Of a stretch of 10,353 nucleotides of DNA, positions 1 through 10,353 are shown in pieces. The notes under the pieces were generated by a model that ran no database searches, was not told the DNA's origin, and was given only the letters and a program-made list of their open reading frames with translations. The position numbers and the translations under genes were made by a program. Each line of letters opens with the position of its first letter. Position 1 is the first letter of the stretch. Source of the stretch: a virus (lineage: Duplodnaviria; Heunggongvirae; Uroviricota; Caudoviricetes); IMG/VR virus record IMGVR_UViG_2531839233_000017. The stretch is one strand, 5' to 3'.

Positions 1-129
1 AGTTCTGCTACCACTCATATCACCAAAAAAGCAGATAAAAAGAAAAGCACGGCAACCACCAAAAAGACCCAGAAAACAGCGAAAAAAGCCGCCAGTAAAA
101 GTACGACCAAAAGCAAAACAGACCAGTAA
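1..129 (+). CDS. 3' end of an upstream CDS (partial, start outside window); Lys/Thr/Ala-rich low-complexity C-terminal tail
   Basis: Frame 1 is open from base 1 to TAA at 127-129 (…TKKADKKKSTATTKKTQKTAKKAASKSTTKSKTDQ*). The stop is followed by an AAGGG Shine-Dalgarno and the ATG at 140. Frame 2 is also open across this A-rich stretch, so the frame assignment is uncertain. Confidence 0.3.
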   Translation, partial: SSATTHITKKADKKKSTATTKKTQKTAKKAASKSTTKSKTDQ

Positions 130-139
130 GGGCACACCG

Positions 140-475
140 ATGACGCTGGCGCGTATGGCGGTATCGTTGCCATGTAGTCAGGCGCAGGATGGGCAGGCGA
201 CGTTATGGCTATCGGTCATCGCATTTGGTAAGCAGGCCGACTTCCTGGCTAAACATCAAAAAGGCGACGTTGCCAGCGTATCCGGCACGATGCAGGTCAG
301 CCAGTGGACCGGACAGAACGGGGAAACGCGGCAGGGTTATCAGGTTATTGCAGACAGCGTAATCAGTGCCCGTGCGGCACGTCCTGGCGGGAACAGACGC
401 AAAACCACAGGCACACAGGGTAATCAGCCACCAGCGGGAGGCGATGACCCTTACGGTGACGGTATTCCGTTCTGA
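140..475 (+). CDS. SSB-like protein with a short N-terminus (partial OB-fold, Gly/Pro/Gln-rich linker, acidic C-terminal tip ending DGIPF)
   Basis: ATG at 140 preceded by AAGGG at 7 nt. The central segment ATLWLSVIAFGKQADFLAKHQKGDVASVSGTMQVSQWTGQNGETRQGYQV aligns by eye with the second half of the E. coli SSB OB-fold (W-x-V-x-FGK … KG … WTDQSG). The C-terminus GGDDPYGDGIPF resembles the SSB acidic tip (DDDIPF). The first ~50 residues of a canonical SSB are absent. Confidence 0.55.
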   Translation: MTLARMAVSLPCSQAQDGQATLWLSVIAFGKQADFLAKHQKGDVASVSGTMQVSQWTGQNGETRQGYQVIADSVISARAARPGGNRRKTTGTQGNQPPAGGDDPYGDGIPF

Positions 476-485
476 GGGGGTGGCG

Positions 486-758
486 ATGGTACATGACCGC
501 ATAGCGGAAGAACTCGAGGCGAAAGGCTTTTACCGGAGGGCGGCGGCGCGATGGGGTGAAGTCATGCTGCTGGTGGAGACAGACAAGGAACGGCATCAGG
601 TTACGATGCGACGGCTGGAATGTTCCAGGAAGGCACAGAAGCCACCGGAGCCGCCGGATAACTTCGGAGACCTGAGAAAGGCAGTCGATCGCACTTATGC
701 TGAAATGGGTATAGATGGTGTAAGCGATGAAATATGGCGTAATTACCCAGACAGCTAA
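486..758 (+). CDS. PerC-family-like small transcriptional regulator (90 aa)
   Basis: ATG at 486 lies 5 nt after GAGGGGG. The N-terminal core MVHDRIAEELEAKGFYRRAAARWGEVM matches my recollection of the PerC/Pch family signature (AE-LE-G-RRAA-RW-EV). The longer track ORF from 366 overlaps the SSB-like gene and lacks an RBS. Confidence 0.5.
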   Translation: MVHDRIAEELEAKGFYRRAAARWGEVMLLVETDKERHQVTMRRLECSRKAQKPPEPPDNFGDLRKAVDRTYAEMGIDGVSDEIWRNYPDS

Positions 759-763
759 TCAAC

Positions 764-787
764 AGCCGGAGAAATCCGGCTTTTTTT
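764..787 (+). terminator. Rho-independent terminator after the PerC-like gene
   Basis: Hairpin AGCCGGAG-AAAT-CCGGCT followed by a run of seven T, directly after the stop at 758. Confidence 0.6.
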
Positions 788-882
788 GCACCAGTTGAAA
801 CGGTATGGCGCATTACCGGGTTTTCGTCACGGTCAGGCATAGTTACTATCTGAAACAAACAGACACAACAGAGGAAAAAACA

Positions 883-1107
883 ATGCCGATGAAATTTGAT
901 GAGATATTAAAACAGCGTGATAAATACCATGCTGACAACATGGAGACGATGAGCATCAATGATTACCGCGCATTCCTGGAGACGGGCGCACTGATTGAAA
1001 AGGATCAGCATGGTTTTGTGAGATGTGCTCTGTCCGGTGAAATGCTGGCGGTAAATCCTGAACAGATAGATGCATTGATAGAATTTCTGAAAGGGATCAG
1101 GGACTGA
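883..1107 (+). CDS. hypothetical protein (74 aa)
   Basis: ATG at 883 preceded by GAGGAAAAAACA (AGAGGA Shine-Dalgarno). Sequence MPMKFDEILKQRDKYHADNMETMSINDYRAFLETGALIEKDQHGF… has no motif I recognise. The track ORF from 805 has no RBS. Confidence 0.5.
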   Translation: MPMKFDEILKQRDKYHADNMETMSINDYRAFLETGALIEKDQHGFVRCALSGEMLAVNPEQIDALIEFLKGIRD

Positions 1108-1117
1108 GCACGCATAC

Positions 1118-1140
1118 AGCCGGAGCAATCCGGCTTTTTG
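1118..1140 (+). terminator. Rho-independent terminator after the 74-aa gene (near-duplicate of 764-787)
   Basis: Hairpin AGCCGGAG-CAAT-CCGGCT followed by TTTTTG. Stem is identical to the terminator at 764-787. Confidence 0.6.
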
Positions 1141-1156
1141 TCATTTTTTGTAAATT

Positions 1157-1187
1157 ATTTGTTCGTGGTTGTTCCACGTTGTTCACT
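1157..1187 (+). promoter_or_regulatory. Three helically phased TTGTTC hexamers (10-bp register) upstream of the capsid operon; candidate operator or activator site, possibly overlapping a weak sigma70 promoter
   Basis: TTGTTC at 1159, 1169 and 1179 (TTGTTCGTGG TTGTTCCACG TTGTTCACTG). The 15-mer TTGTTCCACGTTGTT recurs at 8754-8768. A possible -35 TTGTTC (1179-1184) and -10 TATTTT (1201-1206) sit 16 bp apart. Confidence 0.4.
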
Positions 1188-1261
1188 GACAGGATCGGCA
1201 TATTTTACCCGAACTGAATCATGAGTATTCTCGCCCGTGGTGCCAGGACGCTGGGGCCACT

Positions 1262-1307
1262 TTCCCGCCTGTTAATGTGCTCGCCAATATTCATTACCAG
1301 GCGGGAA
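1262..1307 (+). promoter_or_regulatory. Long inverted repeat in the capsid-operon leader (10 to 11-bp perfect stem, about 26-nt loop)
   Basis: TTCCCGCCTG (1262-1271) is the exact reverse complement of CAGGCGGGAA (1298-1307); flanking T1261/A1308 extend the stem to 11 bp. Confidence 0.4.
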
Positions 1308-1361
1308 AACGATCGGTGCGATTGCTGATTTCCTTATGAAAAACGGTTGAGTTTTTGCCGC

Positions 1362-1399
1362 GTCCTGGAGTTCCTTACTTAACCCCAGGACTTTTTTTT
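1362..1399 (+). promoter_or_regulatory. Terminator-like hairpin plus T8 immediately before the capsid start codon; its 3' arm contains the only Shine-Dalgarno-like sequence
   Basis: GTCCTGG (1362-1368) pairs with CCAGGAC (1385-1391) across a 16-nt loop, followed by TTTTTTTT (1392-1399) and then ATG at 1400. AGGA at 1387-1390 lies inside the stem, 9 nt from the ATG. Confidence 0.45.
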
Positions 1400-2557
1400 A
1401 TGCCGAGAATAATCGAATTACGCCAGCAGAAAACCGCCATTAAAAATCAGATGCGCGACATGCTGGAGAACGCGGAAAAAGAAAACCGCAGCCTTAACGA
1501 TGCAGAGGGCGCAAAATTTGACGAATTACGCGCTAAAGCTGAATCCCTCGATAAAGACATTTCCCGCCTTGAAGCCATTGCAGACGAAGAGCGCAGCAAG
1601 CCAGGTAAAAGCAGCCAGACCACTGACCCGGCAGAACTCCGCAACTACATCCTGACAGGTGAAACCCGCGCATTAAGTACAGGCGTTCCCGCTGATGGTG
1701 GTTATACCGTTATCCCCGAACTGAACACCGAAATCATGCGAATGCTGACGGATGAATCCACCATGCGCCGCATCTGTACCGTGAAGAAAATCAGCAGCAA
1801 CGAGTTTAAGCAGCTTGTTTCCGCTGGCGGTGCGACCGTTAACCACGGTGAAGAGGGTAAGACACGCGAACAGACCAGCACCCCGCAGATTAACGAGGTG
1901 AGCATTAAGCTGTATCCGGTCTATGCGTACCCGCGCACCACACAGGAAATCGTGGATTTTTCCGATGTGGACATCCTTTCATGGCTGACGGGTGAGATTG
2001 GCGACACCTTCACGGAAACCGAAGAAAGCGATCTGGTTGTGGGCGACGGTGACAAAAAAGCAAAAGGTTTTTTATCCGTACCCCGTGCAGAGAAGAACGA
2101 CAAAGAGCGTGATTTTGGTACGTTGCAGGTAATTAAACCTTCCGAATCTCTGGCGTGGACATCTGCGGACCCGCTGATCGACCTGAAATTTGCATTACGT
2201 AAAAAATACCGCAAAAACGCGGTCTGGGTGGTTAACTCCACGACGGCGGCAAAACTTCAGAAGGTGAAGAACGCGAACGGTGATTACATCTGGCGCGACC
2301 GTTTACAGGCGGGTGATCCTGATACGTTGCTGGGCCTTCCGGTCGAATATCTGGAGTTTATGCCTGATAACGTTATTGCCCTGGGTGACTTCAAACGCGG
2401 TTACTACATTGTTGATCACGAAACAGGTGTTCGCACCAGACCGGACAACCTCACAGAGCCGGGTTTCATCAAAATTTTCACGCAGAAATATTTAGGCGGT
2501 GGCGTGGTGGATTCGAACGCGATCAAGATTCTGGAACTGCCACAGGACGACGATTAA
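1400..2557 (+). CDS. Major capsid protein, HK97 fold, with N-terminal coiled-coil delta/scaffolding domain
   Basis: 385-aa ORF. The N-terminus ELRQQKTAIKNQMRDMLENAEKENRSLNDAEGAKFDELRAKAESLDKDISRLEAIADEE is a typical HK97-family delta domain; the remainder has the usual HK97-family capsid length and composition. ATG 1400 is preferred over the track's TTG 1355 because it sits after the leader hairpin and gives a canonical N-terminus. Confidence 0.9.
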   Translation: MPRIIELRQQKTAIKNQMRDMLENAEKENRSLNDAEGAKFDELRAKAESLDKDISRLEAIADEERSKPGKSSQTTDPAELRNYILTGETRALSTGVPADGGYTVIPELNTEIMRMLTDESTMRRICTVKKISSNEFKQLVSAGGATVNHGEEGKTREQTSTPQINEVSIKLYPVYAYPRTTQEIVDFSDVDILSWLTGEIGDTFTETEESDLVVGDGDKKAKGFLSVPRAEKNDKERDFGTLQVIKPSESLAWTSADPLIDLKFALRKKYRKNAVWVVNSTTAAKLQKVKNANGDYIWRDRLQAGDPDTLLGLPVEYLEFMPDNVIALGDFKRGYYIVDHETGVRTRPDNLTEPGFIKIFTQKYLGGGVVDSNAIKILELPQDDD

Positions 2558-2567
2558 CAGCATACAG

Positions 2568-2596
2568 AAGGGGCTTAAAAGCCCCTTTAGTGTTTT
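2568..2596 (+). terminator. Intrinsic terminator or attenuator between the capsid and protease genes
   Basis: Hairpin AAGGGGC-TTAAAA-GCCCCTT (2568-2587) followed by TAGTGTTTT. Confidence 0.5.
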
Positions 2597-2611
2597 ATGG
2601 GTGAAAAAATT

Positions 2612-3169
2612 ATGAAGAGTATGGAAATCCGGTCATCGGAAATCACCACCAGCGCCAGCAACACGCTTACAGGCTACGTTGTTCGCTGGGATAACCTTTC
2701 AGAGCTGCTATGGGGGGAGTTTTACGAAAAATTCCAGCGGGGAGCGTTTACTGAATGGCTTGCGGCGGGTAATGACGTTCGCGGCCTGTATGAGCATGAC
2801 CACAGCATGTTACTGGGGCGCACCCGTTCCGGCACGCTGAAACTGGAAGAGGACGAAACAGGGTTACGCTTTGAACTGACCCCACCGGATACCAGTACAG
2901 GGCGCGACGTTATCGAACTGGTTAAGCGTGGGGACATCTCGGGGATGAGCTTTGGCTTTCGCTCCCGTAAGGATGTATGGGATACCACAACAGATCCATG
3001 CGTGCGCACCGTGCTGGTGGCGGAACTGTACGAAATTACCGTTACATCGGTACCGGCTTACCCCGATTCCGGCGTGGAGCTGGCCCGCCGTTCCCTGTAT
3101 GAGCAGCACCCCGAAAAAATGCCGCGTGCGGATAATCGCCGCTGGTGGGCGGATTTAGCGGGGGTGTGA
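2612..3169 (+). CDS. Prohead maturation protease, HK97 family (S78/U35-like)
   Basis: Motifs YEHDHS (candidate catalytic His) and ISGMSFGF (candidate catalytic Ser), with typical length. ATG 2612 has GGGTGA 7 nt upstream; the track start 2597 abuts the terminator T-run with no RBS. Confidence 0.88.
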   Translation: MKSMEIRSSEITTSASNTLTGYVVRWDNLSELLWGEFYEKFQRGAFTEWLAAGNDVRGLYEHDHSMLLGRTRSGTLKLEEDETGLRFELTPPDTSTGRDVIELVKRGDISGMSFGFRSRKDVWDTTTDPCVRTVLVAELYEITVTSVPAYPDSGVELARRSLYEQHPEKMPRADNRRWWADLAGV

Positions 3170-3170
3170 T

Positions 3171-4382
3171 ATGTGGCCTTTCAGAAGAAAAAAAGAGCAG
3201 CGCAGCATGACGCTTGATGAGTTTATGGCGCTGGCTGGCACATCGAACACGGGGGCGGGTGAGTACGTATCATCGGGGACAGCGGAATCACTGCCCGCCG
3301 TCATGAACGCCGTGACGGTCATCTCTGAGGCGGTGGCTACCATGCCGTGTTACCTGTACCTGGTACGCAATGAGAAGGGGAAGGAGGCCCGCGAGTGGCT
3401 TGATTCTCATCCGGTCGATCATATCCTCAACGAGCGCCCGAACGCGTGGCAGACGCCCTATCAGTTTAAGCGAATGATGGTCCGCCACTGCCTGTTAAAC
3501 GGTAATGCTTATGCGGTGATTCAGTGGGGGCGTGATGGTTTTCCGGTGGCTTTGCACCCTTACCCGCCGCAGTCGGTGAACGTGGAGCAGACAGGCGAAC
3601 ACAACTGGCGCTATTGCATCACTGACGCCTACACCGGAAACACCCACAACTATTTACCGTGGGAAGTACTTCACCTTCGTTACTCCACGGATGACGGCTT
3701 TATGGGGCGCTCACCTGTAACCATCTGCCGCGAATCGCTGGGGCTTGGGCTGGCCCAACAACGCCACGGCGCGAGCGTGATGCGTGATGGCATGATGGCG
3801 GCAGGGGTTATCACGTCAGGCGAATGGCTGGACGGCGTGAAGGGCAAACAGGCATTAGCCGCACTGGAACGCTACAAAGGGGCCAGAAACGCCGGAAAAA
3901 CGCCCATCCTTGAAGGGGGTATGAGCTATCAGCAGCTGGGCATGAGTAATCAGGATGCTGAATGGCTGGCCTCCCGTCGCTTTACCATTGAAGACATCGC
4001 CCGAATGTTCAACGTCTCGCCGATTTTTTTGCAGGAATACAGCAACAGCACCTACAGCAATTTCAGCGAGGCAAGCCGCGCATTTCTCACCATGACGATG
4101 CGCCCGTGGCTGGCGAACTTTGAGCAGCAGATAAAAAACGCCCTGCTGGTGGCCTCGCCTGTACCTGGTATCCGGTATCAGGTGGAGTTTGACAGCGCGG
4201 ACCTGTTACGGGCCACACCTGGCGAACGCTTTGCCACCTATGAGCGCGGCATCAAATCCGGCGTTATGTGCCCGAACGAAGCCCGCGAACGTGAAGGACT
4301 GTCACCGCGTGATGGTGGTGATGAGTTCAGCCAGGCATGGAAACAGGAAGTAAAAATCAGCGAGGGAGAAAAACCGGAATGA
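3171..4382 (+). CDS. Portal protein, HK97 family
   Basis: 403-aa ORF of typical HK97-family portal size, sitting in the head module. The start overlaps the protease stop (TGAtATG) and has a GGGGG Shine-Dalgarno. Confidence 0.88.
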   Translation: MWPFRRKKEQRSMTLDEFMALAGTSNTGAGEYVSSGTAESLPAVMNAVTVISEAVATMPCYLYLVRNEKGKEAREWLDSHPVDHILNERPNAWQTPYQFKRMMVRHCLLNGNAYAVIQWGRDGFPVALHPYPPQSVNVEQTGEHNWRYCITDAYTGNTHNYLPWEVLHLRYSTDDGFMGRSPVTICRESLGLGLAQQRHGASVMRDGMMAAGVITSGEWLDGVKGKQALAALERYKGARNAGKTPILEGGMSYQQLGMSNQDAEWLASRRFTIEDIARMFNVSPIFLQEYSNSTYSNFSEASRAFLTMTMRPWLANFEQQIKNALLVASPVPGIRYQVEFDSADLLRATPGERFATYERGIKSGVMCPNEAREREGLSPRDGGDEFSQAWKQEVKISEGEKPE

Positions 4383-4717
4383 ACATAGGGCGACTGCGTG
4401 ACAGGATAACGATTCAGACCCTGAAACAGACCAGAGCCATGACGGGCGAAATACTCGAAACGTGGGAGGACGGTCACACACTCTGGGCAAGCGTGAACAT
4501 GATCAGCAGCAAGGAGGCCATTTCATCGGGCGCAGAGCTGGCGATTGGTACCGTAAGGATCTGGATACGGTACCGGAAGGACATCAACGCCACCAGCCGG
4601 ATAAAGGTCAGTACGGGGCCGCTGGCGGGGCGTGTACTGAATATCATCGGGCAGCCGTTGCCGGATGTCGCCAGGACACGCCTTGAAATTCTTTGTCGTG
4701 AGGGCGCGGAAAAATGA
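4379..4717 (+). CDS. Head closure / head-tail adaptor protein (Phage_H_T_join-like)
   Basis: MNIGRLRDRITIQ … ETW … LWASV … IRYRKDI … LEILCRE matches the head-closure family pattern (GRLRxRITIQ, ETW, IRYR, LELLC). ATG 4379 overlaps the portal stop (ATGA) and has GAGGGAG 10 nt upstream. Confidence 0.8.
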   Translation: MNIGRLRDRITIQTLKQTRAMTGEILETWEDGHTLWASVNMISSKEAISSGAELAIGTVRIWIRYRKDINATSRIKVSTGPLAGRVLNIIGQPLPDVARTRLEILCREGAEK

Positions 4718-5010
4718 CAGAAGAACTTATCACCCTGGAAGAAGTGAAACTCCATTGCCGCATCGATGGCGACGAGGAAGACCAGTTAATCAGCGGATAC
4801 ATTGCCGCATCGCTTGAGGCGTGCCAGATACACATAGGCAGGCGCTTTGATGACGGGCTGGAGTTCACGCCAGCCATAAAGATTGGCTGCATGATGTTTA
4901 TCGCTCACCTGTATGAAAATCGCCAGATTGTCGCGGATAACGCAAAAACACGCGTACCCATGACGATTGGTGCACTCTGGACGGCTTACCGTGATGTGGG
5001 GGTGTACTGA
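4714..5010 (+). CDS. gp6-like head-tail connector protein (Phage_connect_1-like)
   Basis: LITLEEVKLHCRIDGDEEDQLISGYIAAS … HLYENR is the characteristic signature. ATGA overlap with the previous gene; GAGGG RBS. Confidence 0.8.
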   Translation: MTEELITLEEVKLHCRIDGDEEDQLISGYIAASLEACQIHIGRRFDDGLEFTPAIKIGCMMFIAHLYENRQIVADNAKTRVPMTIGALWTAYRDVGVY

Positions 5011-5450
5011 TGCCGTGGCAACCATTAAGACGATGCACAGAACCAGGCTGTAACAGGCGCGTGAAGTCCGGCAAGTGTGAGGAGCACAGGCGGGCGGCAT
5101 GGCGTGCAGAGGATGCCAGACGAGGACACCGCCGCGCGCGTGGGTACTCCAGACAGTGGGACAAATACCGCGCCATGTATCTGAGTAAAAACCCGTTATG
5201 CGTGCGATGCCTTGAGAAGGGGATATATACGCCCGCCGTGGTGGTGGATCACATTATCCCCATCGATGGCGGTGATGATGTTCTCTTCTGGCCCGAATGG
5301 AACCATCAACCATTGTGTCAGGCGTGCCATAACCAGAAAACGAAATGGCTTGATCCGGCAACAAAAAGCAAGCGTGCCGCAGGTGGATTTCGTGAAGAGG
5401 AAGAACGGGCCGCTAACCGCAATAACTGGATGTATGACGCTGATGAATGA
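5010..5450 (+). CDS. HNH endonuclease (terminase-associated)
   Basis: Cys/His motif CVRCLEKG … VDHIIPIDGGDD … NHQPLCQACHNQKT. Start overlaps the previous stop (TGATG). It sits directly upstream of terS/terL, as in HK97-type cos phages. Confidence 0.88.
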   Translation: MPWQPLRRCTEPGCNRRVKSGKCEEHRRAAWRAEDARRGHRRARGYSRQWDKYRAMYLSKNPLCVRCLEKGIYTPAVVVDHIIPIDGGDDVLFWPEWNHQPLCQACHNQKTKWLDPATKSKRAAGGFREEEERAANRNNWMYDADE

Positions 5451-5616
5451 GCGGGAACAAAACCGCCTTATCCGTGGACTTATAAGGCAGCGTGACGCAT
5501 GGAAGACACAGGAAACAGGGCATAAAGATAAAGCGTCAGGACGCGCAGAACGCATCACAGCGAAGCGATTAACCGACCGTGACCGCGAGGTTATGGAATG
5601 TTTCCGCAATCGCTGA
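5443..5616 (+). CDS. hypothetical small basic protein (about 57 aa); uncertain
   Basis: ATG at 5443 (or 5434) overlaps the HNH stop. Arg/Lys-rich (MNEREQNRLIRGLIRQRDAWKTQETGHKDKASGRAERITAKRLTDRDREVMECFRNR). Weak RBS, no recognisable motif. The long track ORF from 5212 is a shadow of the HNH gene. Confidence 0.3.
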   Translation: MNEREQNRLIRGLIRQRDAWKTQETGHKDKASGRAERITAKRLTDRDREVMECFRNR

Positions 5617-5628
5617 TGAGGCTGTATG

Positions 5629-5672
5629 ACGGGGTGGGGGGCGTTTTCAGGACAAACCCGACCCCGCCGGGC
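5629..5672. other. Candidate cos / packaging-initiation region (G-rich imperfect inverted repeat upstream of terS)
   Basis: GACGGGGTGGGGGGCG (5629-5643) and CCCGACCCCGCCGGGC (5657-5672) are partially complementary G/C blocks in the otherwise AT-rich intergenic region between the HNH-side genes and terS. Confidence 0.25.
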
Positions 5673-5739
5673 ACCGAACGCCTCCTCAAATTTTTATGCA
5701 CGGGAATTTTTTGAAAAATAATCTGGCGAAAAAATAAGC

Positions 5740-6096
5740 ATGGCAAGACCACCGAAAGCCCCCGCCTACCTGGATGATATCGCCGTGAAGCAGTGGCGGG
5801 AAAAATCGCGGCAGCTTGCGGAACGGGGTGACCTGACTCCCGCCGACTGGAGTAATCTGGAACTGTATTGCGTCAATTACTCGATATACCGGAAAGCCGT
5901 CGCAGACCTTGCGGCGCGCGGGTTCAGCATTGTTAACAGTCAGGGCGGAGAGAGCAGAAACCCCGCATTAAGCGCGAAATCCGACGCGGAAAGAGTGATG
6001 ATAAAAATGGCCTCCTTGCTCGGTTTTGACCCGATAAGCCGCCGTAAAAATCCACCGGAAACAGAAGAAGAGGACGAGCTTGACCGCCTGGAATAA
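5740..6096 (+). CDS. Terminase small subunit, P27 family
   Basis: N-terminus MARPPKAP; internal LELYCVNYSIYRKA … GESRNPAL … GFDPISRRK matches the P27-family TerS pattern. Directly precedes terL. Confidence 0.85.
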   Translation: MARPPKAPAYLDDIAVKQWREKSRQLAERGDLTPADWSNLELYCVNYSIYRKAVADLAARGFSIVNSQGGESRNPALSAKSDAERVMIKMASLLGFDPISRRKNPPETEEEDELDRLE

Positions 6097-7741
6097 GTAC
6101 GCAGAAGACGTAAAAACGGGCAAAATTCCGGCCTGTAAACGGTTAAAACAGGCTGTTAAACGGTACTTTTCGGACCTTAAAAGCCCCCTTTACACGTTCG
6201 ATCGTGAGGTTGTGGAGCGGTTTATTGCCTTTTCCAGGGTGTGCCCGCACGTAAAAGGACCGATGCGTGGCAGACCCATTGAGCTGGAGCCGTGGCAGCA
6301 GTTCGCCTTTGCGTGCATCCTCGGCTTTAAGGTTAAGGCCACCGGACGGCGCAAATACACGAGCGCCTTTATCGAAGTGCCGCGCAAAAATGCGAAATCC
6401 ACGACCGCCGCGATTCTGGCTAACTGGTTTTTGATTATGGAGAACGGTCAGCAGGATATCTACACCGCAGCGGTGAGCCGTGACCAGGCGCGGATCGTCT
6501 TTGATGATGCGCGTCAGATGTGCCTTTTATCCCGACCGTTACGCAGGCGGGTGAATATTCAGGCGCATAAGGTGATACACCCGAAAAGCAACAGCCTGTT
6601 AAAGCCGCTGGCAGCAAAAGCGGCAACCATTGAAGGTACAAACCCGAGTCTTGCCATTGTGGATGAATATCACCTGCACCCTGACAACGGGGTTTATTCC
6701 GCGCTTGAACTGGGAATGGGGGCGCGTCCGGAGGGGCTGTTATTTGCCATCACCACATCGGGGAGCAACGTTGTTTCAGCCTGTAAACAACACTACGACT
6801 ATTGCTGCCAGATACTGGATGGTGAAGAGGTGAACGAATCCATGTTCGTGCTGATTTACGAGCTGGATGATGAAAGCGAGGTTGACGATCCGGCGATGTG
6901 GATAAAGGCGAATCCCAATATCGATGTTTCCGTCGATCGTGAAAAACTGGCCTCAACCATCCAGAAAGCGCGGGGAATACCGTCGCAGTGGGTGGAGATG
7001 ATGACAAAGCGATTTAATATCTGGTGCCAGGGGGCTACCCCGTGGATGGGTAACGGCGCATGGGCTGAGTGTGCCGGAACGTTCACGGAGGAAGATTTAC
7101 ACGGCCAGGAGTGTTACGCGGGGCTGGATTTATCATCAACCAGCGATATTTCCAGCGTATGCTATGCCTTTCCGGTCGGTAAAACCATTATGCTGATTTC
7201 CCGTCATTATCTGCCGGAGTTCCAGCTACAGAACCCCGCCAATAAAAACCGCGCTGTCTATCGTCAGTGGGCTAAAGCGGGCTGGATACGCACAACGCCT
7301 GGCGACTGCATTGATTACGACCGGATCAGAGATGACATCATGCAGGACGCGGAGAAATTTCATATCAGGCTGGTGGGCTTTGATACGTGGAACGCCACGC
7401 ATCTCAGAACGCAATTACAGGGGGCAGGTTTTGAGGTGGAGCCGTTCCCGCAAACCTACCTCAGATTCAGTCCGGCGGCGAAATCGTTCGAAGTTTTTGT
7501 TAACCGCAGGGTGATTGTGCATCGTGGCGATCCGGTGTTGTCCTGGTCGATGAGTAACGTCGTGATGCAGAGTGACGCGAACGCCAATATCAAGCCGAAC
7601 AAGAAAAAATCACCGAACAAGATAGACCCGAGCGTGGCGGCACTGATGGCGTTTGGTACATTCCAGGCAGAGCATGAGGATTTTGCTTTTGATATAAGCG
7701 ACAGCCACCGCCAGAAACTGGAAGAATTCAGCGGGGTGTAA
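6080..7741 (+). CDS. Terminase large subunit (ATPase/nuclease)
   Basis: 553 aa. Walker A-like VPRKNAKST, Walker B-like LAIVDEYH, C-terminal nuclease-type region. Probable TTG start at 6080 (AGGA 5 nt upstream) overlaps the terS 3' end by 17 nt. Confidence 0.92.
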   Translation: MTAWNKYAEDVKTGKIPACKRLKQAVKRYFSDLKSPLYTFDREVVERFIAFSRVCPHVKGPMRGRPIELEPWQQFAFACILGFKVKATGRRKYTSAFIEVPRKNAKSTTAAILANWFLIMENGQQDIYTAAVSRDQARIVFDDARQMCLLSRPLRRRVNIQAHKVIHPKSNSLLKPLAAKAATIEGTNPSLAIVDEYHLHPDNGVYSALELGMGARPEGLLFAITTSGSNVVSACKQHYDYCCQILDGEEVNESMFVLIYELDDESEVDDPAMWIKANPNIDVSVDREKLASTIQKARGIPSQWVEMMTKRFNIWCQGATPWMGNGAWAECAGTFTEEDLHGQECYAGLDLSSTSDISSVCYAFPVGKTIMLISRHYLPEFQLQNPANKNRAVYRQWAKAGWIRTTPGDCIDYDRIRDDIMQDAEKFHIRLVGFDTWNATHLRTQLQGAGFEVEPFPQTYLRFSPAAKSFEVFVNRRVIVHRGDPVLSWSMSNVVMQSDANANIKPNKKKSPNKIDPSVAALMAFGTFQAEHEDFAFDISDSHRQKLEEFSGV

Positions 7742-7754
7742 TGAGGTCAGCAGC

Positions 7755-8036
7755 ATGACAGAAGCCGAACTACTGGGATTAATCCGCCGCGTATCTGGAA
7801 TCAGCCAGCAGGCTGACGAACAGACCACGCAGCCGGACAGCGTGACAGCCGAAAATTATGCGCGTGTTGTTGCTGAGGTGATGTGCCGTGATGGTATCCA
7901 GCTTAATGATGTTGATATGCGCAACATACGGATCCGCGTTCTTGAAATGCTGGCCTACAATCGCCGCGTTGAACTGCATCGGGAGAAAGAAAAAATAACG
8001 TACCACTGGAAGAAGCCGGAGCGGTTGCGGCGGTAA
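7755..8036 (+). CDS. hypothetical protein (93 aa), last gene of the island-side operon
   Basis: ATG 7755 with GAGG 8 nt upstream, 14 nt after the terL stop. No recognisable motif. The stop codon lies inside the first copy of the GGCGGTAACT repeat. Confidence 0.5.
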   Translation: MTEAELLGLIRRVSGISQQADEQTTQPDSVTAENYARVVAEVMCRDGIQLNDVDMRNIRIRVLEMLAYNRRVELHREKEKITYHWKKPERLRR

Positions 8037-8455
8037 CTGGTTGATATTTTCGAAATTCGCCAGCGGCGAACATCGGGGAAACCAGCCTAACCCGTTGATT
8101 CTTTCGGAAACAGCCATTGGCGGAATCCGGCGCGGTAACTTGCTGATATTCCCGATAACGCAAAATTGCGTGGCTGAATGAACATTATGATTACTTATGA
8201 TTACGCAGATGATTAAGGCCTAAACCGTTGATTCTTCCCAATTTCCACAGACTGTGGAAGTTGGCGCGGTAACTTACTGAGATTAAAGCAAAGCGCAAAA
8301 TTGCGCCGACTACATCCCTCACATGCGAAATTTTCGCAGTTTAATTACTCGCCAGTTTGATCGTTAACCCGCTGATATTTTCGGGAACCTCAATTTGAGG
8401 AAGTCGGCGCGGTAACTGGTTGATACTTTCGACCTCCTCAATTTGAGGAGGTCGG
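8027..8455. repeat. Array of four composite repeat units: 22-bp direct repeat GGCGCGGTAACT-NNN-TGATATT, each followed 4 to 9 bp later by a different palindrome, with a second direct repeat CCGTTGATTCTT about 37 bp upstream of three of them
   Basis: Core copies at 8029-8048, 8129-8150, 8263-8284 and 8405-8426. Palindromes at 8056-8070 (TTCGCC-AGC-GGCGAA), 8158-8171 (ACGCAA-AA-TTGCGT), 8293-8308 (GCGCAA-AA-TTGCGC) and 8430-8454 (CGACCTCCTCAA-T-TTGAGGAGGTCG). Second motif at 8092-8103, 8225-8236 and variant 8369-8383. Confidence 0.8.
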
Positions 8456-8743
8456 GGCACAGAAAAACAACGAATATGTTGTTTTTGGGAATGGTCATAA
8501 TGACCACGCAGACCATCAAGGCAACCACAACGAACATCGTTACGGTTGGAGCTTTTACCCCACTGGGGGAAAGGTATTACGATAATCATAACACCTACCG
8601 AACAGGTAAAACCCACCAGCCTGATTAACAGTTAACCGGAAAAAAAATCCGGTAGCCCCGTTATGGGGATCCCCATATCGACATTAACGCCCCTCATGAA
8701 TTGGTGCGCTTCCCCCTGGAAAGATTACCCGCCTGTATATTTC

Positions 8744-8769
8744 TTGTGTCTATTTGTTCCACGTTGTTT
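8744..8769 (+). promoter_or_regulatory. Second set of three helically phased TTGT(T/G)(C/T) hexamers, sharing a 15-mer with the capsid-operon upstream site
   Basis: TTGTGT at 8744, TTGTTC at 8754, TTGTTT at 8764 (10-bp register). TTGTTCCACGTTGTT at 8754-8768 is identical to 1169-1183. Confidence 0.4.
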
Positions 8770-8786
8770 CATACAGTGCACCGAAC

Positions 8787-8810
8787 GGTGTAGTTAATGG
8801 TGTAGTCAAT
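8787..8810 (+). repeat. Tandem 12-bp direct repeat (GGTGTAGTTAAT / GGTGTAGTCAAT)
   Basis: Two adjacent 12-mers differing at one position, about 85 bp from the phoQ stop. Confidence 0.5.
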
Positions 8811-8892: not shown

Positions 8893-10353
8893 TTATTCAT
8901 CTTTCGGCGTAGAATGCTGGCGACCAAAAATCACCTCCATCCGCGCACCGCCAAGCATGCTCTCTCCGGCGACGATTTTACCCTCATATTGCTTGGTGAT
9001 TTCGCGGGCTACCGCCAGCCCCACACCTTGCCCAGGGCGTAAAGTATCAACCCGTTGACCACGGTCGAAAATGACCTCTCGCTTGCTTAATGGAATACCG
9101 GGGCCATCATCCTCGACCACAATATAGAGATGCTCGTCGGTTTGCCTTGCAGAAATTTCGACAAACTCGAGGCAATATTTACAGGCATTATCCAGTACAT
9201 TGCCCATCACCTCGACAAAATCGTTCTGCTCACCGACAAAGCTGATCTCTGGCGAAATATCGAGAGAGATATTGACCCCTTTGCGTTGATACACTTTGTT
9301 CAGCGCCGAGGTGAGATTGTCCAGCAGTGGGGCGACCGGATGCAGCTCGCGGCTGAGCAATGTCCCGCCGTGCATACTGGCACGATGCAGGTAGTAGCCA
9401 ATTTGCTGTGAAATGCGGCTGATTTGCTCCAGCATTACCGGTTCAGCATCACTGACGCTCATCTTTTCACTACGTAGAGAACGCAGCGTACTTTGCAGCA
9501 CCGCCAGTGGCGTTTTCAGACTATGGGTCAGGTCGGTGAGCGTTGTACGATATTTGTCGTAACGTTCGCGTTCACTTTTTAACAATCGGTTCAGGTTTCG
9601 TACCAGACTGGTCAGTTCTCGCGTTGTGGCTGGATTGAGCAATTCGCGGTTATGTTCTTCCAGTTCGCGGACTTCTTTTGCCAGGGCTTCGATGGGGCGT
9701 AAACTCCACCAGGCGGCGACCCACAGCAGCGGGATCACTAACAGCAGATTGGCTGAGAGCACATAGATAAACCAGCTCCAGACCATATAGGAACTTTTTA
9801 GCTCCACCGGAATGGTATCCACCACCACAATGGTTAACTTTGGCATCCGCGATGTTGCCGGGTAGACGTTTACCGCCACCGAGTGGGTCATCTCCGCGTC
9901 GTCATCATCTTCCCGCACTTCCTGCAACTGTTGCTGTATCGAATGATCTCCACTCAGCAAGAGGCTGGTATCGTTAACATCCGCTTCAATTTCATGAAAA
10001 CCATTCGATTTCAGCCAGTCAGGCTGGATCATCTTCATCAGCCAGGGCACGTCACGTTGCGCCCATAAAAGCTGCCCGTTCTCATCATAAATTAGCGTCA
10101 TGGTGGGGCTTTGCTTGTCGATATTTTCGGGTAACTCGACATGCAACTTATTGTTTTCCCACTTCGCAAGGGTATAGAACAGATTGCTCTCGCCACGTAA
10201 CAGCCGAAACGTAGTTTTATCGAAACTGACGCTATAACCGATCAGCGCGACCATTCCGTAGGCAAGCGAAAGCACCAGTACTACCGCTGCCGTTGCCAAC
10301 AGAAAACGTACCCGCAGCGAGAGCGGGAAAAAAAGACGCAGTAATTTTTTCAT
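8893..10353 (-). CDS. phoQ: Sensor histidine kinase PhoQ of the PhoPQ two-component system
   Basis: 486-aa ORF, full length. [33 protein letters not shown]…, periplasmic acidic patch [12 protein letters not shown]-box [16 protein letters not shown]-binding G-boxes DDGPGIP and GQGVGLAVA. Matches E. coli PhoQ from memory. The start codon is at the very end of the window. Confidence 0.97.

Follow-up and report, generated by a model that had tools for sequence, protein, structure and literature searches.

PchE of the capsid-forming satellite EcCIEDL933, a PerC-family protein encoded beside the replication module, is probably an accessory regulator of host transcription

The window analysed here is a stretch of 10,353 nucleotides, of which positions 115-8800 match the E. 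coli O157:H7 EDL933 chromosome and many other O157 genomes with 100% identity. In EDL933 this DNA belongs to the island OI-51/CP-933C/Sp7, that is EcCIEDL933, the prototype capsid-forming PICI (cf-PICI), which is located between roxA and phoQ. There, genes for an integrase, an AlpA-like regulator, an Icd-like protein, a DUF4222 protein, a DUF927 primase and a small hypothetical protein are followed by ssb, the PerC gene, a 74-aa ORF and the genes for the HK97 capsid, protease, portal, head closure, connector, HNH, TerS and TerL proteins. The gene at 486-758, which the first-pass annotation had described as a PerC-like regulator carried by a phage satellite, is thus indeed satellite-borne.

Positions 1-119 of the window are 100% identical to an internal part (approximately codons 34-73) of mepH/ydhO, a core gene located a long way from phoQ. 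Island sequence begins at 115, within ssb, so that 5 nt (AAAAC, 115-119) belong to both matches. Because the join to mepH truncates the island within ssb, its left half and the native pchE promoter are missing from the window. In EDL933 the intact ssb of 411 nt (8951-9361 of the EDL933 locus, L001) lies directly 5' of pchE in the same transcript. The mepH::ssb junction was absent from all 5,426 complete E. coli genomes and was not found in an exact-match scan of IMG/VR. It is located 121 nt from the end of contig AOEE01000082.1 (GCA_000335315.2), of which the window is the sequence from nt 3, and it may have arisen as a chimera during assembly or by a real rearrangement of the duplication type. 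An Rfam scan of the whole window identified no RNA family. The features around the PerC gene are listed in Table 1.

Table 1. Features between the left end of the window and the start of the capsid gene
Feature	Position	Strand	Description
ssb, 5'-truncated	140..475	+	111 aa, compared with 136 aa in intact islands; PF00436, E 5.8e-11, model positions 40-101 only
Shine-Dalgarno-like GAGGGGG	474..480	+	5 nt 5' of the pchE ATG; overlaps the ssb stop codon (473-475); read from the sequence
pchE (ECs1588; WP_000233299.1)	486..758	+	90-aa PerC-family protein; Pfam PF06069 over the full length
Intrinsic terminator, end of the ssb-pchE unit	764..787	+	stem-loop AGCCGGAGAAATCCGGCT followed by a T-run; terminator scan; RNA fold -15.3 kcal/mol, z -3.2
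74-aa ORF (phrog_1957)	883..1107	+	PHROG E 7e-42; no Pfam/NCBIfam family
Second copy of the same terminator	1118..1139	+	AGCCGGAGCAATCCGGCT (stem 1118-1135) followed by TTTT (1136-1139); terminator scan; RNA fold -14.4 kcal/mol, z -3.3
Capsid leader hairpin	1261..1308		-23.5 kcal/mol, z -4.3
Second leader hairpin	1362..1399		followed by U8; ends at the capsid ATG (1400)

The open reading frame of the PerC gene is intact, with ATG at 486 and TAA at 756-758, and encodes the 90-aa product MVHDRIAEELEAKGFYRRAAARWGEVMLLVETDKERHQVTMRRLECSRKAQKPPEPPDNFGDLRKAVDRTYAEMGIDGVSDEIWRNYPDS. Since the island is OI-51/CP-933C/Sp7, or EcCIEDL933, the gene is pchE (ECs1588), a group-3 PerC homologue. It has 100% nucleotide identity with the EDL933 gene on the same island, and the only difference is the mepH fragment that replaces the left part of the island in the window. 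RefSeq names the EDL933 product 'PerC family transcriptional regulator' (WP_000233299.1). OI-51/CP-933C/Sp7 was described as carrying 'PerC (PchE)' (Flockhart et al.), and the name PchE for the OI-51/Sp7 gene was also used by Andreozzi & Uhlich. The gene, its family, the island and its presence in PICIs are therefore all in the literature already: the gene was first named in early EHEC genome papers, two papers are dedicated to its function and it appears among the common accessory genes of PICIs. New here are the conserved terminator that closes pchE, its fixed place across satellites of Enterobacterales, the finding of cf-PICIs that have no PerC, and the ANR-like N-terminal half of the protein.

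A longer, 130-aa reading from GTG 366, which is annotated in one NCBI record (P0001), was rejected, as it overlaps ssb in another frame and finds no support in the homologues, which start with M[VI]xD, or in the Pfam model, both of which begin at ATG 486. RefSeq furthermore places a 'trigger factor, frameshifted' pseudogene at 727-842 (L001 9613-9728), overlapping the 3' end of pchE and the terminator; this annotation looks spurious.

Membership of the PerC family, which had been proposed from an N-terminal motif, was borne out by profile searches. PF06069 (PerC) matched residues 1-89 of PchE on positions 1-89 of the 90 in the model (E 3.1e-45), with 152.8 bits compared with a curated cut-off of 22.6, and phrog_994 was matched with an E of 3e-46. 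When 36 diverse homologues were aligned, L10, E11, G14, R17, R18 and A19 were invariant, and D4, A7, A20, R22 and W23 were at least 90% conserved. All 11 of these signature residues, scored as invariant or at least 90% conserved in alignments of 36 and of 58 sequences, are present in PchE. Because invariant and near-invariant residues fall within residues 7-27, the motif quoted in the first-pass annotation, which contains the most conserved positions of the 36 homologues, is a genuine PerC signature. PchE also has the size of the family (∼90-105 aa) and, being encoded on EcCIEDL933, its carriage by mobile elements of Enterobacterales; homologues were found on 371 plasmid records and in many PICIs. 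The gene is under purifying selection, as seen from a median dN/dS of 0.26 across 19 distinct alleles of 90 codons. A tblastn search of 50,697 phage records gave only two weak matches, and no PADLOC defence model was matched at E <= 0.01 by PchE, the 74-aa ORF, a 93-aa ORF or SSB.

A sequence search of the PDB gave no solved relative of PchE, the best match (E 0.36) being to unrelated coiled coils. AlphaFold2, run with the 58-sequence alignment, predicted helices at residues 5-13, 16-27 and 33-50, a Pro-rich linker and a further helix at 60-74, with a pLDDT of 84.5 overall and above 88 for residues 1-50. In this model the N-terminal ∼50 residues would form a TPR-like three-helix unit resembling the ANR domain, the TPR-like matches being weak for a small helical protein, and there appears to be no recognisable DNA-binding fold. 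The ANR_neg_reg model (NF033650, 54 positions) aligned with residues 7-51 of PchE on positions 9-53 with 17.9 bits (E 0.0021), which is below the curated cut-off of 32, so that PchE resembles the ANR family and is not assigned to it. Eight other PerC-family proteins were matched with E values from 4e-9 to 3e-4, and three of these (P0149, P0222 and P0224) passed the cut-off; some PF06069 proteins are also named 'ANR family' by NCBI. Since several PF06069 proteins exceed the ANR cut-off, the PerC and ANR families grade into each other, and the matches of the model to PchE and to the eight further proteins indicate that their N-terminal domains are alike. The ANR proteins (AraC negative regulators, e.g. 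Aar) are small and all-helical like PchE, of which the N-terminal ∼50 residues cover almost the whole model, but PchE has an extra Pro-rich linker and C-terminal helix. The ANR family is reported to bind H-NS and AraC-type regulators, and an ANR-like mechanism was suspected for the PICI protein EcCIMP1_025 (Pick et al.).

Published 5'RACE and RNA-seq data place the transcription start of pchE 10 nt 5' of ECs1586 and identify a polycistronic ECs1586-ECs1587(ssb)-pchE RNA. In EDL933 this position is L001 8693, where the ATAACCCGCA iterons of the island origin have just ended, so that origin and pchE promoter abut. Many copies of ATAACCCGCA, in both orientations as PICI origin iterons, are found in the intergenic region 3' of the primase gene (L001 8360-8670). 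At the other end of the unit, the terminator stem stands directly 3' of the PerC stop codon in five of six aligned PICIs with differing downstream modules. With a promoter and a terminator of its own, pchE therefore closes a self-contained, moron-like unit that is insulated from the capsid operon. In the same six-PICI alignment, the sequence 3' of the terminator groups by the module that follows (cf-PICI type or capsid+decoration+TerS type) and not by PerC.

The second terminator aligns with the single terminator of islands that have no 74-aa ORF. This ORF is a small cassette between the two terminator copies (764-781 and 1118-1135) and is separate from pchE. It is missing from many E. coli cf-PICIs, in which the capsid leader lies directly 3' of PerC, and homologues with 41-43% identity were found 5' of the capsid gene in the distant cf-PICIs L073, L074, L077, L078 and L081, all of them PerC-less; it is thus more widely kept across cf-PICI lineages than PerC. 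No sigma-70-like promoter was found in positions 1-1500 of the window, and the second hairpin of the capsid leader leaves no room for a promoter before the capsid ATG. This hairpin and its U8 recur with an altered stem and loop in L079 and were not found in the PerC-less L073, L080 and L081. The arrangement suggests that the capsid operon is reached via terminator read-through (antitermination).

DNA resembling pchE was present in 966 of the 5,426 complete E. coli genomes, in 750 of them with at least 80% coverage, and the cf-PICI of this window was covered to at least 80% in 359. Genes like pchE also occur in PICIs at roxA/phoQ that have a different morphogenesis module and in E. coli PICIs at tqsA, tRNA-Pro/yejM and rcnR/thiM; in some PICIs large hypothetical genes follow. 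The order beside the origin is constant, with a primase gene, in some cases a small ORF, SSB and/or ProQ, and PerC on the same strand. One PICI at tRNA-Pro/yejM (L009) has two PerC genes, a truncated one after the primase gene (8010-8252) and an intact one 4 kb further on (12548-12850).

A motif-seeded scan with one genome per species yielded 22 loci; its pattern was derived from the PchE motif and is biased to the PchE clade. A PICI-type primase gene was located within ∼2 kb 5' of PerC, on the same strand, at 16 of these loci, from E. albertii, E. ruysiae, Atlantibacter, Kluyvera, Shimwellia, Enterobacter, Leclercia, Pantoea, Lonsdalea, Chimaeribacter, Erwinia and Rosenbergiella. Most of these taxa are not known to carry the LEE, and plant- and nectar-associated genera are among them. 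At none of these loci did the cf-PICI capsid module follow PerC, and several carry tape-measure-like genes. The modules downstream of PerC in different satellites are unrelated to each other and comprise the HK97 capsid operon, a capsid+decoration+TerS module, tape-measure genes and large hypothetical genes.

For a comparison among cf-PICIs, the capsid protein was used to retrieve 58 IMG/VR loci, and those with a capsid at least 97% identical were taken as the E. coli type. An intact PerC gene stood directly before the capsid leader in 36 of the 38 E. coli-type elements with enough upstream sequence and a degraded one in the other two. The PerC module persists in this group while the type of primase is swapped (DUF927, D5_N or RepA helicase). 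By profile search, PerC was absent from six of seven cf-PICIs with 66-70% identical capsids; at the two loci examined (L073 and L080), the capsid-proximal interval contains other ORFs on the reverse strand. The homologous capsid-to-terminase operon thus regularly runs without PerC, which is not a core cf-PICI gene, as it is not present wherever that operon occurs. Several islands carry a frameshifted or truncated PerC gene (frameshifted in L006 and L007). In the literature, PerC regulators are described as "commonly found in PICIs", though not universal, and in the figures of PICI papers they have the colour of virulence or accessory genes. Variants of PerC have been noted in some E. coli PICIs, the presence of PerC varies among EcCIMP1-like elements, and it is tabulated for one of 16 Enterobacter cloacae satellites.

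The published experiments on pchE concern host functions. Expression is low and steady in uninduced cells at 30 and 37 °C and, unlike that of pchA/B/C, is lowered by an SOS-inducing antibiotic. When expressed from a plasmid, pchE strongly represses csgD, csgA, biofilm formation and adhesion to HEp-2 cells, also represses lpfA1 and eae and lowers stpA, whereas flhDC, fliC and motility are induced. Deletion of the gene resulted in a slight rise in Congo-red binding/curli. In ler-lacZ fusions (Miller units) PchE gave a less than 2-fold increase, compared with 5- to 8-fold for PchA/B/C. A LEE1-lacZ fusion is cited, at second hand, as unaffected by the PerC-like genes of EcCIEDL933 and EcCICFT073, the primary paper on PerC1/2/3 being Porter et al. 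2005 (PMC543544). PchE is thus not an activator of ler/LEE1 in the published assays. The first-pass annotation had proposed that the gene might be accessory cargo that acts on host transcription; the proposal fits these experiments, with the reservation that PchE itself hardly activates ler/LEE, given the small change in ler and the lack of an effect on LEE1-lacZ as cited.

PchE shares PF06069, the LExxGxxRRAAxRW signature and mobile-element carriage with PerC (BfpW), encoded on EPEC pEAF plasmids, and with PchA/B/C from EHEC lambdoid prophages, and it is 41% identical over 87 residues to a PerC-family protein of a plasmid on which a bfpT-regulated chaperone gene is also found. PerC and PchA/B/C strongly activate ler/LEE1, whereas PchE has a less than 2-fold effect or none and represses csgD/curli while inducing flagella; the SOS response induces the group-1 pch genes but represses pchE; and PchE has 90 aa compared with 104 aa, the group-1 genes being 315 bp long. 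Another relative borne by a PICI is EcCIMP1_025 of EcCIMP1, a PerC-family protein that is ∼40% identical to the EcCIEDL933 protein and is likewise treated as accessory. However, EcCIMP1_025 silences LEE1 in Citrobacter rodentium while PchE is nearly neutral on LEE1, and EcCIMP1 has no capsid genes, unlike EcCIEDL933.

Combining these results, pchE is probably what it has been taken for, a moron-like accessory regulator that acts on host transcription and is commonly carried by PICIs, and not a switch of the capsid operon. In the intact island the three-gene ECs1586-ssb-pchE transcript starts just after the origin iterons and ends at the terminator directly 3' of pchE. Insulated in this way from the capsid operon, PchE would modulate host genes for curli and flagella as accessory cargo. 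The lack of a recognisable DNA-binding fold and the ANR-like N-terminus make an action through protein-protein contacts most likely, and PchE would thus contact host transcription or nucleoid proteins, with H-NS/StpA-type or AraC-type partners as candidates, instead of activating genes sequence-specifically. The absence of PerC from six of the seven cf-PICIs with homologous capsid operons argues against a dedicated activator of that operon. Against PchE as a host modulator it has to be considered that most host phenotypes were obtained by overexpression from a plasmid and that the effect of the deletion was slight. In addition, the constancy beside the replication module, at no fewer than four E. 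coli att sites and at 16 of the 22 loci from other species, would not usually be seen with free cargo and is a hint of some function in satellite biology. As this place is kept even where the LEE is missing, a satellite role is a fair question, and if it were true, a family known only as "virulence regulators" would have to be re-read as part of satellite biology.

It is conceivable, although on the whole unlikely, that PchE-type PerC proteins are ancestral, position-fixed PICI components that act in the triangle of satellite, helper and host and were not virulence cargo in origin. PchE might then, for example, neutralise a host nucleoid or transcription protein at satellite establishment or induction, and what it does to the LEE, curli and flagella would have arisen later by exaptation or as a side effect. 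Rather improbable is the broader version in which PchE-like proteins belong, together with SSB and/or ProQ, to a conserved PICI backbone across Enterobacterales and serve the interplay of satellite, helper and host, one example being the neutralisation of a host nucleoid protein or helper regulator at establishment or replication, with virulence, curli and flagella as side effects. This backbone would account for the fixed gene order beside the origin in E. coli PICIs at roxA/phoQ, tqsA, tRNA-Pro/yejM and rcnR/thiM and at the 16 scan loci from species mostly not known to carry the LEE. It would also account for the retention of the PerC module when the primase is swapped and for the purifying selection, and the partners reported for the ANR family fit it as well. 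However, the scan carries the clade bias of its motif, PerC varies among EcCIMP1-like elements and is tabulated for only one of 16 E. cloacae satellites, and it is absent from distant cf-PICIs and broken in several islands. Relief of H-NS silencing is also no obvious need of the island, which is not AT-rich (GC 43-59% in 400-nt windows). The more specific idea that PchE relieves silencing of an AT-rich capsid operon was rejected on the same grounds, as the operon has a GC content of 48-59%.

That PchE is instead the late-gene activator of the satellite itself, the second option of the first-pass annotation, which after AlpA-driven induction switches on the capsid/packaging operon from 1400 or permits read-through into it, is improbable. 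The position of pchE at the border between replication and morphogenesis genes in E. coli-type cf-PICIs, and likewise in classical PICIs whose capsid/TerS module differs, would fit such a function. So would the lack of a sigma-70-like promoter in 1-1500 and the terminator-like hairpins before the capsid ATG, which call for a dedicated expression factor, and PerC-related PHROG families are labelled 'transcriptional activator'. As a small satellite-encoded regulator placed before morphogenesis genes, PchE would, if it controlled late genes, be a functional analogue of the late transactivators delta of satellite P4 and Ogr of P2. No similarity to these in sequence or fold was found, however; delta and Ogr are zinc-finger proteins, while PchE has a single conserved Cys and a predicted TPR-like helical fold, and PerC is absent from related cf-PICIs. 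These PerC-less cf-PICIs, with their homologous capsid-to-terminase operons, also speak against a late activator as such, as do the PerC-bearing satellites in which no capsid genes follow, the post-terminator leader that co-varies with the downstream module and not with PerC, and the terminator between pchE and the operon. Moreover, uninduced cells express pchE constitutively and SOS induction lowers its expression, and alpA is required for induction of EcCIEDL933 while overexpression of alpA alone is enough to drive reproduction of the island, as described in the cf-PICI papers. The hairpins and the U-run would themselves point to antitermination and not to a classical activator. In published SOS RNA-seq data the Sp7 genes including pchE mostly changed in one direction while the PICI was not clearly induced, a pattern that speaks neither for nor against a coupling of pchE to the capsid operon. 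A literature search for effects of deleting pchE on PICI induction, capsid production or transfer found no such study, and the cf-PICI papers are silent on the function of the gene. Finally, it is highly improbable that pchE is a decaying, functionless remnant in this genome, as might be thought from the cut in ssb, the join to the mepH fragment with the native promoter missing from the contig, and the frameshifted alleles elsewhere, since the reading frame is unbroken and agrees fully with the expressed EDL933/Sakai-type gene, dN/dS is low, transcripts and phenotypes have been published, and the junction so close to the contig end may be an assembly artefact.

A further observation concerns the genes that follow PerC in other species. 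In PICI-like satellites from Pantoea, Enterobacter, Leclercia, Chimaeribacter and Erwinia, an ORF of 900-1136 aa lies ∼0.7-1.5 kb 3' of PerC. The loci concerned include L023 (11557-14697), L016, L022, L025 and L026, and a further ORF is located at 10595-12397 in L031; the one in L023 contains the tape-measure domain PF20155 (E 3e-57). At the Rosenbergiella locus, a lytic transglycosylase domain is part of a 600-aa protein. Satellites that encode a tape-measure-like protein seem to be unusual.
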